From assembly GCF_048403405.1 (NCBI RefSeq), contig NZ_CP183129.1: a DNA stretch of 64,000 nt; one strand, written 5' to 3'. Below, in pieces: positions 27,001-33,000 of the stretch. The number at the start of each line of letters is the position of its first letter. The first letter of the stretch is position 1. Made by a program: the position numbers. The DNA comes from Escherichia coli (GTDB taxonomy: Bacteria; Pseudomonadota; Gammaproteobacteria; Enterobacterales; Enterobacteriaceae).

Positions 27001-30000
27001 CGTATTCGTGAGACGGTGCGGCACGCACTGAATGTTCATCCCCGCCTGACGGCATTGCGGGTTGACCTGCGTTTCCCGGATGTACCGGCAGCAACGGAGG
27101 CAGCTGTGATATCCCGCTTCATCAATGCCCTGAAAGCCCGAATCGACGCTTACCAGAAACGTAAGCATCGGGAAGGTAAACGCGTGCATCCCACAACCCT
27201 GCATTACGTCTGGGCCCGGGAGTTTGGGGAGTGCAAAGGTAAAAAACACTATCACCTGATGCTGCTGGTCAACCGGGATACCTGGTGTCGTGCCGGCGAT
27301 TACCGCGCTCCGGGATCACTGGCCGGGATGATTAAACAGGCGTGGTGCAGTGCCCTGGGAGTGGATGCCGGACGTTATGACACGCTGGCACATTTTCCGG
27401 TCAGGCCGGCGGTGTGGCTGGAACGCGATGATGACACCGGCTTTCAGCAGGTGCTGGAGCGTGCTGACTATCTGGCGAAGGAGAGTACCAAAGCTTACGG
27501 CACCGGTGAGCGCAACTTTGGCTGCAGTCGTGGCTGAGCCCGACAGACGACTTATCTGACTTCAGTGTGATGACGTGTTCACAGCGACCACACTGATTTT
27601 CCCTTCTGAGACTGAACTGAAAACCGCCATTCACACCTGACCACGCTGCCCGTACCGGGACGGCTGTTGCCTGCGTGTCGTCTGGCGGTAAGGAACCACA
27701 CTATGTACGCAAAATCTTTTCTCGCACTTGATGGCAACGGACGTCTGACCGGTGCCCGTACCGCACAGACTGCTCCTTATGCCCACTACACCTGCCACCT
27801 TTGCGGCAGTGCACTCAGATACCACCCGCAGCACGACACGGAACGTCCCTGGTTTGAACACACTGACGACGGGCTGACGGAGCACGCGCAGCAATGTCCT
27901 TATGTCAGGCCGGAACGCAGAGAAATACGGTTGATTAAACGTCTGCAGCAATTCGTCCCGGATGCCTTACCCGTGGTACGTAAAGCCAGCTGGTACTGCA
28001 GGCAATGTCACCACGATTATTATGGGGAGCAGTACTGCACACACTGCCAGACCGGGCGCTTCAGTGAGGACGGGGAGCAGAATGAACGGTATAAAAACGG
28101 GGCTGGGGATCACGCCGGGTGAGCACATTATCAGTGCCGACTCTGCGCTCAGCAGAAATATCCGGCATTGTTTCTGCCTTTCCTGTCATGGCCGGTTGAT
28201 TCTGCAGACAGATGCTCAGGGGGCGTGGTTTGAGCATGATTTACATGCCCTGAGTGAGCAACAGAAGGGTAAGCGTGCAGCAAGAACCGTATTGACGGGG
28301 ATGTGTTATTCAGTCGGCAGTGCTACGCGCCAGGGGAGCAGTTCGCCGACCCGGTTTATCGGCCAGTCGGCTATGACGTCAAGGACATAGCGGAGGTAGC
28401 TTTCTGGCTCCACTCCGTTCAGTTTGCACGTCCCGATCAGGCTGTACAGCAGCGCTCCCCGCTCTCCTCCATGATCCGAACCGAAGAACAGGTAGTTTTT
28501 GCGGCCCAGACTGACCATCCGCAACGCATTTTCAGCGATGTTATTGTCCGCCTCAGCCCAGCCATCATCTGCATAGTACGTCAGCGCCGGCCACTGGTTC
28601 AGGGCGTATGCGAACGCTTTCGCCAGTTCTGAGTGTCGCGACAGGGTTTTCATCTTTTCACGCAGCCAGCTTTCCAGGGATTTCAGCAGCGGTTTCGTTT
28701 TCAACTGACGTTCGGCAAGGCGCTGCTCCGCCGTCATTCCCCTTATCTCTGCCTCGATGGCGTACAGTTCGCCGATCCGTTTCAGCGCTTCCTCCGTCAG
28801 GGCTGACGGGGTGCGAACGTGCACATCGTGGATTTTACGGCGGGCGTGAGCCCAACAGGCGGCTTCCGTTATCCGGCCATCCCGGTACAGCTCGTTGAAC
28901 CCGGCGTATGCATCCGCCTGCAGTACACCACTGAACCCCGCAAGATGGGTCTGCGGATGGATGCCTTTTCTGTCCGGGCTGTAAGCGAACCACACCGCCG
29001 GCGCCAGCGTTGACCCGGCGTTACGGTCGTCACGAACGCAGGTCCATAACCGCCCGGTCTTCGTTTTCTTATTGCCTGGCAACAGCACCGGGACAGGCGT
29101 GTCATCAGCATGGAGCTTACCGTCAGTCAGCACATAGCCATGAAGCGCCTCTTCCAGCGGAGACAGCTGCCGGCAGCATGCATCCACCCAGCCCGACAGC
29201 AGTGAACGGCTCAGCTCCACACCTTGCCGGCCGTATATTTCTGACTGGCGATACAGCGGGGTGTGCTCTGCATACTTCGAGGTCAGCACGCGGGCCAGCA
29301 GCCCCGGTCCGGCGATACCCCGCTCGATGGGCCGCGAAGGTGCAGGTGCCTGCACGATGGCATCGCACTGAGTACAGGCATGTTTTTCCCGTACCGTCCG
29401 GATAACCCGGAAGGCGCTACGCATCAACTCCAGCTGTTCGGCGATATCCTCGCCCAGATAGCTCAGTGAACCGCCGCAGTTCGGGCAGCACGGCGCCGCA
29501 GGCAACAGTCGCTTTTCGTCACGGGGTAGTGATTCAGGGAACGGCTTACGGGTGCGGGTCTGACGCAACGGACGCTGTACTGCCGGGTCATACACCCTAC
29601 CAGTCAGCGTATCGCTCTCTTTCTGAAGCCGGTTCAGATCGGCTTCCATTTGTGCGATACGGCGGGAGACTTTTTCGGAACGACTGCCGAAGTTCATCCG
29701 GCGGAGTTTATCCAGCTGCGCCTGCAGATGGTCTATTTCGCGCTCCCGGTTGCTCAGCTTTTCCTGCAGGGCGTGGATCAGCGCTTCCTGTTCGGCCAGG
29801 CGCTGTTTCAGCAGGAAAATGTCGTCAGAAGAGATGTCGTTCATACATCGTGTATTTTTCGCCGGGCATGGACCCAGCACGCAACTTCTGTCTGTGCACC
29901 ACCTTCACGTTTGGCACTGAACAGCCGATCGTAACCGCTGAATGCATCCGCCTGCAGGATACCCCGGAAGGGACGAAGGTGTTGTACCGGATGTTTTCCC

Positions 30001-33000
30001 TGCCTGTCTGGTGAGTAGGCGAACCAGACCGCCGGTGGCTCTGATGAGCCCGCATTCCGGTCATCCCGGACATACGTCCAGATGCGTCCTGTTTTTGCCT
30101 TTTTTCTGCCCGGTGTCAGCACTTTTACCGGTGTGTCGTCAGTGTGAACCTTGCGGGTGTTCATCACGTAACGGTACAGGGCATCATTCAGCGGAGTCAT
30201 TAACTGGCAGCACGCGTCAACCCAGTTGGAGATTAATGCACGGCTCAGTTCGGCACCCTGTCGGGCAAAGATTTCACTCTGACGATACAGTGGCAGGTGT
30301 TCGCAGTATTTTCCCGTTAACACGCGGGCAAGTAATCCGGAGTCCGCGATGCCGCGCGCTATCGGGCGGGACGGCGCTGGCGCTTCAACTATACAGTCAC
30401 ATTTTGTACAGGCTTTTTTTACCCGAACAGTGCGGATCACTTTCAGGGCGCTACTCACCAGTTCCAGCTGCTCAGCACTGACTTCACCCAGATAATCCAG
30501 CTCACTGCCACACTCCGGGCAACAACTTTCTTCAGGCTCCAGGCGGTGTATTTCACGGGGAAGATGTGCTGGTAACGGACGACGATGACGTGACTGTCGC
30601 AACTGGCGGGGAACCTGCGGGTCATCCTCACGCCCACTGTAACGATCGCTTTCCTGTTCGCGTTGTTTCAGTTGGGCCTCAGCCTGTTCAACCTCACGCT
30701 GCAGTTTTTCAGAACGGGTACCGAACAGCATCCGGCGCAGTTTTTCTATCTGGGCCCTCAGATATTCTATTTCCCGCTCCTCCTCTTCGATCTTTTCTTC
30801 GGCACGTGCCAGTGCAGAGCGCAGGAAGGCCTCCGTCTCTTCAACCAGACTCAGTTGCAGATCTCTCTGACGGAGGGCTTCAGCCTGCTCAGAGAGCAGC
30901 CTTTCCAGCTCAGTGATACGAATGAGGTATTTCCGACTCATGACCGTTTTTATAATCCGGCCATGACATTTTTACAACATTGTCAGTGCGTTAAGACGGG
31001 ATGTTTTTGGCTGACGCCAGTCTAGCTTATCGAGGAGCATTGCCAGCTGCGAGCGGGTAATGGATACCTTACCGTCACGCACCGCAGGCCAGATAAACAG
31101 GCCTTCCTCCAGGCGTTTGGTGAACAGGCACAGACCATCAGCATCAGCCCAGAGGATTTTAATCATGTCACTCCGTCGGCCACGGAAGATGAACAGGTGA
31201 CCGGAGAAGGGGTTCTCATCCAGCACATGTTGTACCTGTTCACCCAGACCGTTGAAGGATTTACGCATATCAGTAACGCCGGCAACCAGCGAGATTCGAG
31301 TGTCTGATGGGAGCGAGATCATCGCCCCCTCCCGGTCAGTTCACGGATCAACACCGTGAGCAGCTCTGGTGAAGGATTTTCCAGCGTCATGTTACCGTGG
31401 CGGAACTCAACTTTACAGGAACTGGCACTGACTGTGCTTTGTGAAGGAGTGGATAAAAGCGGAGTAAGAGCCGCCATAGGCTCTTTCTGCTCATCAGGCG
31501 TTATCTCAACAGGTAATAATTCAACGCCAGCGTCAGAAGAGGTTGTTACCGGAAGACGCCGCGATATACGCCCTTCGTTCTGCCAGAGCCTGAGCCATTT
31601 GAACAGGAGGTTATCATTGATATCGTGTTCCCTGGCAATACGGGCAACAGAGGCTCCTAGTTGTGAAGCCAGTTTAACCATTTGAAGTTTAAACTCATTT
31701 GAAAATGTTCTGCGGGGTTCTGCGGATAATATTTTCTGTTCCATAACAGGTGTCCACTAGTTGATGAAAAGGTGGGCACCTACGTTACCAATACTGGCTT
31801 AATGGCTACATACGGCGGTCAGTTTACGCTTACCATGTATCTGGCGAGTGAAGCTTTATGTCGTGTTCTGGCGTGTCCTGTGTTAGTTAGAACACGCCAT
31901 CGATGGTCAGCAGGTTCATATTGCACCAGAGCGGATACAGCGTGGTGTTATGTCAGGGCTGCGCTGTTTACGTGAACACGTGGCGTACGGCCCCGCTTCC
32001 TGGCCGCTGCTGGGCATGGATCACGGCGCGACAAAGGGGCGACTACCTGGCAGCATGTGTCCAGCCGGTTCACAATCTGGTGAAGGTTCCTTACGCTCAT
32101 GGGCCATACTGATAATTCACCAGGCCATCATTTCCAGAGGAAGACGCCGTTTGCGTAGCGTGACAGTGTCGGACTCTTCAGGGCTGTGGGTAATCAGTTC
32201 CGGGGCAAGATAGTCGCAGAGGGTTACGCAGAGAATAGTAACTGGACACTGGATCGATCAACCGATCCTTAACTGAGCGGCATGACAGCTTTCTGATGGT
32301 TTTTTTTTGATAATCTTCACATTGTGCTTCTTTTCTGTTGGATAATCTTTGTACTTGATGGTGTACTAGGTATCCCATTATGCAGTTAAGTGAAGGTGAT
32401 TAAAAATGCAATGTGAATTTAAAGGGGTCATATCAGCATTACCCACTCCTTATGACCAATCCCAGCAAATCGATATGGAGAGTCTTCGAAAACTGATCCG
32501 TTTTAATATCGAACAAAATATTAAGGGATTGTATGTTGGAGGCTCTACTGGAGAAGCATTTCTTCAGAATGTTGCAGAGCGAGAAAAAATTCTTGAAACA
32601 GTAGCCGATGAATCAGATGGAAGACTGACACTTATAGCGCATGTGGGCGGCATCAGTACGGCAGAAAGCGAGGTACTTGCAAAAGCTGCAAAAAAATACG
32701 GATATCATGCTATATCTGCTGTTACTCCATTTTATTATCCTTTTTCATTTGAAGAGCATTGTATCCATTACAGGAAGATTATTGATTCTGCAGATGGACT
32801 TCCGATGGTAGTTTATAATATACCGGCTCTTAGCGGAGTGCGTTTTTCTTTAGATCAGATAAATGAGCTTGTCACAATACCCAGGGTTTGTGCATTAAAA
32901 CAGACATCCGGTGATTTATTCCAGATGGAACAAATCAAAAGGAATCATCCAGAGCTTGTGTTATATAATGGTTACGATGAAATATTTGCATCAGGGTTAA

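Follow-up and report, generated by a model that had tools for sequence, protein, structure and literature searches.

Organization of the chimeric IS66 element

The DNA analysed here (64,000 nucleotides of Escherichia coli, referred to throughout as the window) carries on its minus strand a 3,565-bp chimeric insertion element of the IS66 family. Its features and immediate neighbours are as follows, with IRL and IRR denoting the left and right terminal inverted repeats.

31890..32288 (-), degenerate "transposase domain-containing" pseudogene adjoining the IS682 IRL (PGAP annotation of CFT073 and of the tandem genomes)
28269..31833 (-), chimeric element in full, 3,565 bp, left part from IS682 and right part ISEc8/ISEc22-like (blastn against intact references and the tandem locus L007)
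31804..31833 (-), IS682 IRL, GTAAGCGTAAACTGACCGCCGTATGTAGCC, identical in the L003 and L007 copies that PGAP names IS682; outer flank GATACATG
31319..31744 (-), IS682 tnpA, 141 aa, intact (Pfam HTH_Tnp_1, 8.7e-14; NCBIfam IS66 TnpA)
30972..31322 (-), IS682 tnpB, 116 aa, intact, its ATG overlapping the tnpA stop as ATGA (Pfam TnpB_IS66, 7.8e-35; NCBIfam IS66_TnpB)
30938..30966 (-), predicted IS682 stem-loop between tnpB and tnpC, UCAUGGCCG / 11-nt loop / CGGUCAUGA, with the tnpC AUG in the 3' arm (RNA fold)
29841..30941 (-), IS682 tnpC fragment, first 366 of the 537 codons, closed by a stop that the junction creates; last 171 aa missing
29843..29845 (-), deletion junction, 3-nt microhomology TAT common to both parents (three-way comparison with L007)
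28306..29844 (-), complete ISEc8/ISEc22-like tnpC, 512 aa from ATG (all four Pfam IS66 transposase domains)
28269..28298 (-), ISEc8/ISEc22-like IRR, ...GCTGCACGCTTAC; outer flank CCTTCTGT, inside the truncated zinc-ribbon gene
28082..28268 (+), zinc-ribbon (DUF7828) gene, 5' part, interrupted at the IS end (PGAP pseudogene in CFT073)

The element begins with the IRL GTAAGCG... at position 31833 and finishes with ...CGCTTAC at 28269; the initial annotation had the former end right but ran one base too far at the latter, to 28268. The IS66 gene order tnpA, tnpB, tnpC and the ATGA overlap of tnpA with tnpB are retained, tnpC being represented by a fragment and a full heterologous copy, and all four reading frames are open. 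All three ORFs of such elements are reportedly needed for transposition. Open reading frames together with Pfam and NCBIfam assignments bear out the initial description of tnpA, tnpB and a 366-aa tnpC fragment, ending ...HARRKIHDV*, whose TGA overlaps the ATG of a complete and different TnpC (ATGA, 29844..29841; junction sequence ...CACGATGTATGAACGAC...). It was also correctly noted that, within the window, no tnpA or tnpB lies between the two tnpC sequences and no tail of the first follows the second. A 524-aa, GTG-started version of the second reading frame is merely an upstream extension of the 512-aa ATG frame, and the fragment is already a pseudogene in the output of the NCBI annotation pipeline.

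In the IS682 TnpC fragment the leucine zipper and zinc finger remain, and the DDE domain is kept in its first half only (positions 1-163 of 284 of Pfam DDE_Tnp_IS66); the motifs DDTPV and LQADA are present, while NNxAE and the DDE_Tnp_IS66_C domain are gone. The ISEc8-like TnpC has a complete DDE_Tnp_IS66 domain (positions 1-283 of 284) and scores 464 bits against the NCBIfam cut-off of 180. At 63% identity across their shared part, the two TnpCs of the window are, judged by sequence, different IS66 members.

The element lies in a genomic island of uropathogenic-type E. coli, namely the island with the Ag43 and sialic-acid genes in CFT073-type strains. The 64 kb contain three or more copies of the IS66 family, of which two have decayed. 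Intact homologues of the truncated zinc-ribbon gene occur elsewhere (L005 and L006); its 3' part was sought in the window, and no match was found past 28268. A search of 5,426 genomes for the hypothetical ancestral junction of the zinc-ribbon 3' part with the ISEc8 IRL returned none that covered both halves, so in none of the genomes sampled did the ISEc8-like element simply split the gene. In the tandem genomes described below, the ISEc8-like IRL adjoins a 90-bp spacer, not the 3' part of the zinc-ribbon gene.

The two parent elements

IS682, a name taken from the NCBI PGAP label on a copy in E. coli O145 RM12275 (L003), is 97.2% identical to window positions 29843-31833 over 1,991 nt. The two have in common the IRL, tnpA, tnpB, the ATGA overlap, a 30-nt tnpB-tnpC spacer and the first 366 tnpC codons. 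The window copy differs in having lost the last 545 bp (171 tnpC codons and the IRR) and in having no 8-bp duplication; it is not a full-length IS682, as 1,991 of about 2,533-2,536 bp are covered.

The right part belongs with ISEc8 and ISEc22. Identity to window 28269-29858 is 91.8% for the ISEc8 of O157 (1,591 nt retained), and the right part is 94% identical to copies named ISEc22 and 99.5% identical to an intact chromosomal ISEc8-like copy that has an 8-bp target duplication (L004). Positions 28269-29845 hold the full 512-aa tnpC and the IRR of this group, and the complete tnpC has 99.5-99.7% nucleotide identity to intact copies in L004 and L007. Missing from the window copy are the IRL, tnpA, tnpB and spacer hairpin, that is, the 5' 868 bp, and it is accordingly not a full-length ISEc8. 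The ISEc8-like tnpC is itself a mosaic, its first 300 nt being 98.4% identical to ISEc8 and its last 300 nt 100% identical to ISEc22-named copies. Between the two parents, TnpA, TnpB and TnpC are 42%, 64% and 61% identical.

Both ends of the chimera start with GTAAGCGT, giving the GTAAGCG terminal inverted repeats of IS66, and both retain the family core GTAAGCGT...CCGTAT. Drawn from different elements, they match at 17 of 30 positions, as against 23 of 30 for native pairs. An 8-bp direct target duplication was sought around the chimera and not found (flanks GATACATG and CCTTCTGT); the intact IS682 is bordered by the duplication TCTTTCTC and the intact ISEc8-like copy by AATAAATC.

A tandem arrangement at the same locus

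A query made of the left flank plus full-length IS682 is matched over 100% of its length in 18 genomes. In this tandem form IS682 (2,536 bp) and the ISEc8-like element (2,442 bp) are both complete and stand head to tail, with a spacer of 90 bp between them. The order in L007 and L008 is nan genes, transposase pseudogene, IS682 tnpA-B-C, ISEc8-like tnpA-B-C and truncated zinc-ribbon gene, and the flanks are those of the window. Apart from L007 positions 11292-12794, window and L007 are collinear, and the IS parts of the window are 99.55% and 99.68% identical to those of L007. The lengths agree to the base: 2,536 + 90 + 2,442 - 1,503 = 3,565. The IS682 side matches L007 to ...GATGTAT and the ISEc8 side from TATGAACGAC..., so that TAT occurs at both endpoints of the 1,503 bp absent from the window, as in a short-homology deletion. 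A longer microhomology, offered by a 16-nt overlap of the parental megablast matches, was rejected, as base-by-base comparison with the true parent leaves TAT and patchy similarity.

We read the tandem as the ancestral state at the locus, although it is the rarer form (18 genomes versus 655 with the chimera); the direction from tandem to chimera is argued from parsimony rather than from a dated phylogeny. Neither element of the tandem has a target duplication of its own, and hence earlier, unexplained rearrangements preceded the deletion.

Distribution of the junction

The initial annotation had proposed looking for the same junction in other genomes, and among the 5,426 complete genomes of E. 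coli an identical one occurs in 655; CFT073, ATCC 25922 and 83972 are three of these. A 600-bp segment across it is 99.8-100% identical in the 655, among them several separate assemblies of ATCC 25922 and CFT073. The boundary of left flank and IRL occurs in 673 genomes, equal to the 655 with the chimera plus the 18 with the tandem. The right boundary occurs in 639 only, which leaves roughly 34 genomes with the left boundary alone, so some carriers have changed further on that side.

The exact 44-nt junction was also scanned across 100,044 species-representative genomes. The sole match lies on a 3.9-kb contig binned as Segatella copri that is collinear with this E. coli locus (99.87%) and is most likely a binning contaminant. 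A single PLSDB record has the junction, a 22-kb "plasmid" whose alignment to the window needs about 100 gap openings; its left context is that of the window, and it was rejected as evidence of mobility. The chimera is at a single chromosomal location. With this, the mismatched ends and the lack of an 8-bp duplication, there is no sign that the chimera moves as a unit.

Probable origin by a single deletion

It is very probable that the chimera is the scar of a single 1,503-bp deletion that fused a neighbouring IS682 and ISEc8/ISEc22-like element. On this reading the IS682, the 90-bp spacer and the second element once lay head to tail in the island, in the same orientation, until one RecA-independent (illegitimate) intramolecular event cut into both elements. 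IS682 lost its final 545 bp, with the 3' end of tnpC and the IRR; the 90-bp spacer disappeared altogether; and the second element lost its initial 868 bp, with the IRL, tnpA, tnpB and the stretch between tnpB and tnpC. Crossover took place at the 3-nt microhomology TAT, probably by replication slippage or microhomology-mediated joining. The fused sequence reads GAT GTA TGA when followed in the frame of IS682 and ATG AAC in the second frame, and from the position of the crossover the ATGA overlap is an automatic by-product that need not have been selected. The resulting hybrid of 3,565 bp has the left end of IS682 and the right end of the ISEc8-like element; it encodes the TnpA and TnpB of IS682, an IS682 TnpC that is catalytically incomplete and a complete TnpC of the other element. 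It has remained at one chromosomal site, inherited with the island. The sequence comparisons show directly the structure, both parents, the tandem arrangement, the exact deletion and the single locus, whereas the slippage mechanism, the part played by the hairpin, a single origin and immobility are inferred from them.

With uniformly distributed endpoints, a right endpoint that coincides exactly with a start codon, as here, would be expected about once in several hundred cases. In the second element a stable 9-bp hairpin overlaps the tnpC start codon and has this TAT at its foot, which may have favoured this endpoint; the hairpin is a plausible cause, and selection for a retained, expressed tnpC is a conceivable one. 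Classic work on lacI in E. coli reportedly found that RecA-independent deletions have short homologies at their endpoints and frequently lie beside palindromes. The present scar is like deletions of that kind in its 3-nt-repeat endpoints, in the hairpin foot at one end and in its size of 1.5 kb, and differs from them in that the mechanism is deduced from the scar only. The setting is likewise that of the adjacent or tandem IS copies and remnants in pathogenicity islands; unlike other island IS remnants, this one has a pre-deletion state that survives in other strains, and the event can be reconstructed to the base.

Other routes to the same structure

IS copies are classic sites of assembly error, and the initial annotation had named a misassembly at the junction as the refuting case; two IS66 copies might have been merged into one or wrongly joined at a repeat. 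The occurrence of the junction in 655 independently finished complete genomes rules this out for practical purposes; moreover, the two halves have only 3 nt in common there, so that there is no repeat to collapse. The initial annotation favoured recombination between two IS66 members. That the element is a chimera of two different members was right, whereas an exchange between homologous parts is very improbable. The tnpC genes are indeed homologous (63% amino acid identity), and HARRKIHDV is encoded by both, but RecA-dependent recombination between them would yield an in-register hybrid tnpC, and here codon 366 is joined to codon 1. RecA-mediated recombination in E. coli needs roughly 20-30 bp of perfect identity; the parents offer only TAT and, across some 25 nt interrupted by indels, patchy similarity (GCCCGG..AAAATAC), far below that need, which argues against this route. 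No better chance can be given to a nested origin, in which an ISEc8-like element entered IS682 tnpC and later deletions took its 5' part and the IS682 tail. Nesting does occur in the family, the IS682 of L003 lying inside the tnpC of another IS66 element with the 8-bp duplication TCTTTCTC, but the 18 genomes that hold both elements have them complete and side by side, 90 bp apart, at this same locus, in keeping with the earlier view that this was not a simple nested insertion; at least three events would be needed in place of one deletion.

Distinct from these is the proposal, which we consider quite unlikely, that the structure works as a hybrid IS or has been kept for a regulatory role. In the functional version the full TnpC, hairpin-free and translated by ATGA coupling, would work with IS682 TnpA and TnpB on mixed ends; in the regulatory version the 366-aa fragment, a DNA-binding half with an incomplete DDE domain, would inhibit IS682 in trans. 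The four open reading frames, the resemblance of the ATGA overlap to native tnpA-tnpB coupling, the family core kept at both ends and the removal of the hairpin normally lying over the AUG all speak for such a role. Against it stand the single locus in 655 genomes with no target duplication, ends that match at 17/30 positions where native ends match at 23/30, and the divergence of the parental proteins (42%, 64% and 61% identity). Other IS66 copies of the window are visibly decaying, and non-synonymous differences from L007 equal or exceed synonymous ones in every ORF, in numbers too small to judge selection.

A hairpin over the tnpC start codon

The ISEc8-like hairpin deleted from the window, ATAAGCCCG-GTAAAATA-CGGGCTTAT, has a predicted energy of -9.2 kcal/mol as DNA (z -5.9), with none of 200 shuffles as stable, and the last three bases of its 9 bp are the junction TAT. 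The IS682 stem-loop at 30938..30966 folds as RNA at -16.6 kcal/mol (z -2.6). Pairing is kept in related tnpB-tnpC spacers, and divergent IS66 members carry a predicted hairpin occluding the tnpC start codon. Among the papers searched, none deals with the chimera junction or with an IS66 tnpC hairpin. One might suppose that such a hairpin gates translation of IS66 tnpC, that the deletion swapped this gate for the ATGA overlap, and that the products of the hybrid operon act in trans, a combination that we hold to be unlikely. If it were true, the ISEc8-type transposase would be made constitutively, alongside an IS682 TnpC fragment able to bind DNA but not to catalyse transposition, and either protein could mobilise or inhibit the many other IS66 copies of these successful B2 lineages. 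Should the hairpin itself prove real, this little-understood family of transposons would have a simple, testable point of control.

Significance

The chimera is a case of ordinary mobile-element decay. The odd pairing of a tnpC fragment with a full tnpC in CFT073, ATCC 25922, 83972 and hundreds of other genomes is one deletion scar, neither a new kind of element nor an assembly error, and has little import beyond annotation. The junction could nevertheless serve as a stable lineage marker for the island, distinguishing its tandem from its deleted form.

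Structure of the chimeric IS66 element

Sequence comparison shows the IS66-family element on the minus strand at 28269..31833 to be what remains of IS682 and an ISEc8/ISEc22-like element after a deletion fused them. Its four open reading frames are:

31744..31319, minus strand: tnpA, ORF of 141 aa, IS66 TnpA by Pfam and NCBIfam
31322..30972, minus strand: tnpB, 116 aa, IS66 TnpB by Pfam and NCBIfam; its start overlaps the tnpA stop (ATGA)
30941..29841, minus strand: IS66 tnpC fragment, ORF of 366 aa, reaching only position 163 of 284 in the DDE domain
29844..28306, minus strand: full IS66 tnpC, 512 aa, start MNDISSDD, with all four domains (Pfam, NCBIfam)

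At the junction, CACGATGTATGAACGAC, the stop codon of the tnpC fragment (TGA) and the start codon of the full tnpC (ATG) overlap. The IS682 TnpC fragment retains the DDTPV and LQADA motifs and is missing the NNxAE region and the C-terminal domain. Across their overlapping part the two TnpCs are 63% identical, and thus represent different IS66 members. The element begins with GTAAGCG... at 31833 and finishes with ...CGCTTAC at 28269. The initial annotation, which described a TnpC fragment fused through an ATGA overlap to a complete, different TnpC, proved accurate when the ORFs, overlap, domains and ends were checked, except that its low end lay one base beyond the element end at 28269.

Parent elements

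Partial matches to the junction query among complete E. coli genomes fell into two sets: in IS682-named copies the match covers the upstream half and ends at window 29843, and in ISEc8-named copies it covers the downstream half and begins at window 29858. An intact IS682 in E. coli O145 RM12275, flanked by the 8-bp duplication TCTTTCTC, shares 97.2% identity with window 29843-31833. For window 28269-29858 the identity is 91.8% with O157 ISEc8, about 94% with ISEc22-named copies, and 99.5% with an intact copy on a chromosome, flanked by the 8-bp duplication AATAAATC. Between the parents, identity is 42% for TnpA, 64% for TnpB and 61% for TnpC.

The ISEc8-like tnpC (window 28269-29845) is itself a mosaic: identity to O157 ISEc8 is 98.4% over the first ~300 nt, and identity to ISEc22-named copies is 100% over the last 300 nt; as a whole gene it is only 92-94% identical to ISEc8 or ISEc22-named copies.

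An ancestral tandem and the deletion

A tandem query was assembled in which the left flank and the window's IS682 part are completed by the IS682 3' end that the window lacks, supplied from RM12275. It was matched in full in 18 genomes, among them strains S1-KEN-03-A (locus L007) and G6/7 (locus L008). Both loci read, in order, nan genes, a degenerate transposase pseudogene, a complete IS682 (2,536 bp), a 90-bp spacer, a complete ISEc8-like element (2,442 bp) and a truncated zinc-ribbon gene, and their flanks on both sides are those of the window. The window and L007 are collinear across 18 kb with two differences only: an IS3-family insertion found in L007 alone, and L007 11292-12794, which the window lacks. 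That missing segment of 1,503 bp comprises 545 bp of IS682 (the last 171 tnpC codons and the IRR), the 90-bp spacer, and 868 bp from the ISEc8-like element, namely its IRL, tnpA, tnpB and the tnpB-tnpC spacer. The arithmetic closes exactly, 2,536 + 90 + 2,442 - 1,503 = 3,565 bp, the length of 28269..31833, and the retained parts are 99.55% and 99.68% identical to L007.

The two tandem elements both lack an 8-bp target duplication of their own, and the zinc-ribbon gene's 3' part was not found in the window or anywhere else searched; the tandem was therefore shaped by earlier rearrangements, older than the deletion. The 90-bp spacer (L007 11837-11926) is an open-frame fragment (DKYQFTYDDEKMLSLAKEMKSVVDNTSKY) with no match within the window. 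The IS682 of strain G6/7 (L008 9301-11836) is only 97.5% identical to window 29846-31833 (48 mismatches), against 99.55% for the L007 copy, and the flanks of both loci are equally near the window; this suggests that the resident IS682 in G6/7 was gene-converted by another copy.

Mechanism of the deletion

Compared base by base with L007, the IS682 side of the window is identical through ...CACGATGTAT and the ISEc8 side from TATGAACGAC, with only TAT common to both parents at the junction. The initial annotation favored recombination between two family members. Exchange between homologous parts does not account for the junction, because codon 366 of one tnpC is joined to codon 1 of the other, positions that are not homologous. 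Transposase-mediated deletion is unlikely since the breakpoints lie inside the elements and not at their ends. A shared sequence as short as three bases is compatible with RecA-independent slippage or microhomology joining, and on such established knowledge a deletion by either route, through the common TAT, would fit.

In the ISEc8-like parent, a 9-bp hairpin that is stable as DNA, ATAAGCCCG-GTAAAATA-CGGGCTTAT (-9.2 kcal/mol, z -5.9), ends in this TAT and takes in the first two bases of the tnpC ATG. The foot of this hairpin is a plausible preferred deletion endpoint, which would make the exact coincidence with a start codon less surprising. The IS682 frame GAT GTA T|AC becomes GAT GTA TGA, and the second gene takes its ATG from that same T-A-T-G; the ATGA overlap is thus a product of where the crossover was placed.

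A putative hairpin at the tnpC start

The deletion removed the spacer hairpin from the ISEc8-like tnpC. The tnpB-tnpC spacers of IS682, ISEc23-like and ISEc8-like elements are otherwise unrelated, and all three groups have a roughly 9-bp stem-loop with an A-rich loop, the 3' arm of which holds the tnpC AUG. The sites are:

30938-30966, minus strand: window
12768-12794: L007
about 6490-6530: locus L006
further IS66 loci: L011-L090

A set of 64 IS66 loci from viral contigs yielded 17 distinct spacers. Pairing is kept in most of the IS682/ISEc23 clade, including through a GG/CC to AA/UU double change. Some of the less related spacers fold otherwise, in some cases with the AUG in a loop. In a 10-sequence alignment 83% of cells pair and two pairs are changed on both sides; 3 of 500 shuffles scored as high for covariation. 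The case for a conserved start-codon hairpin across IS66 members is no more than suggestive, given the small sample of closely related sequences. Such a hairpin may act as a translational gate on the transposase. No description of it was found in the searchable literature, which does not show that it is new.

Occurrence and validity of the assembly

A 3.9-kb query spanning the element is matched at 100% in many finished E. coli genomes, among them CFT073, several independent ATCC 25922 assemblies and strain 83972, and a junction-centered 600-bp query is fully covered in 655 of 5,426 complete E. coli genomes. The same junction, which it had been proposed to seek elsewhere, is therefore common, and an assembly artefact is ruled out by this count and by the independent ATCC 25922 assemblies. 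In CFT073 the surrounding island carries Ag43, a YfjI/Gp2/zinc-ribbon module and a sialic-acid utilization cluster.

The boundary of left flank and IRL occurs in 673 genomes, exactly 655 + 18, so all junctions belong to one locus. The right boundary (ISEc8-like IRR/zinc-ribbon, query window 27969-28568) occurs in 639, and about 34 carriers must therefore have changed further on that side; one carrier, GN06098, diverges 92 bp outside the IS end.

A scan of species-representative genomes for the junction gave one match, on a contig collinear with this locus. That contig, JAJXBQ010000270.1 (3.9 kb), from a metagenome bin labelled Segatella copri, is E. coli DNA, being 99.87% identical to window 29763-33643, and is probably a binning contaminant. 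The only "plasmid" match (CP088753.1 in PLSDB, 22 kb) is error-rich and has the same left context: it copies window 36044..28269 with about 100 gap openings and continues into pap fimbrial genes. It is probably not a real plasmid.

Activity of the hybrid

Nothing suggests that the hybrid is active. The genes and ends are those of an IS66 element, but no 8-bp target duplication surrounds it (flanks GATACATG and CCTTCTGT), and it is not identical over the full length to named IS682 or ISEc8/ISEc22-like elements. Its two ends match at 17 of 30 positions, versus 23 of 30 in each native pair. The single locus, the low identity between the parents' proteins and the truncation of the IS682 TnpC point the same way. 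In each ORF, non-synonymous differences from L007 are at least as frequent as synonymous ones, in tiny counts. A residual possibility is that the full TnpC might be expressed by stop-start coupling, or that the fragment might serve as an inhibitor.

Other features in the window

56373-58999, plus strand: a second member of the IS66 family, sharing 88% identity with IS682 along most of its length
11575-13485, minus strand: a third and more distant remnant of the IS66 family, which aligns with parts of the ISEc8-like element at 68-77% identity
20166-20371, minus strand: IS102 RNA (Rfam, 260 bits), directly upstream of the Ag43 gene (17019-20147)
59115-59237, minus strand: isrC sRNA (Rfam, 97 bits), just past the right end of the second IS66 element

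Over its first 90 nt the second element agrees with the IS682 IRL at 99% identity. Frameshifts disrupt its tnpA, and another affects its tnpC close to the C-terminus. No target duplication was found around it (flanks GGATTGTC / ACGCACCT). Its orientation is opposite to that of the chimera, so that the 24.5-kb segment 31834-56372 lies between two IS682-type left ends that face one another.

Significance

An IS scar left by short-homology deletion in a pathogenicity island is of a well-known kind. The genes of the chimera are already annotated, as a pseudogene and a transposase gene: in CFT073 the annotation pipeline enters the 366-aa ORF as a pseudogene, "IS66 family transposase, incomplete, missing C-terminus", and treats the ORF after it as an intact tnpC. 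What is added here is a base-exact reconstruction of the event from surviving genomes of the ancestral type.
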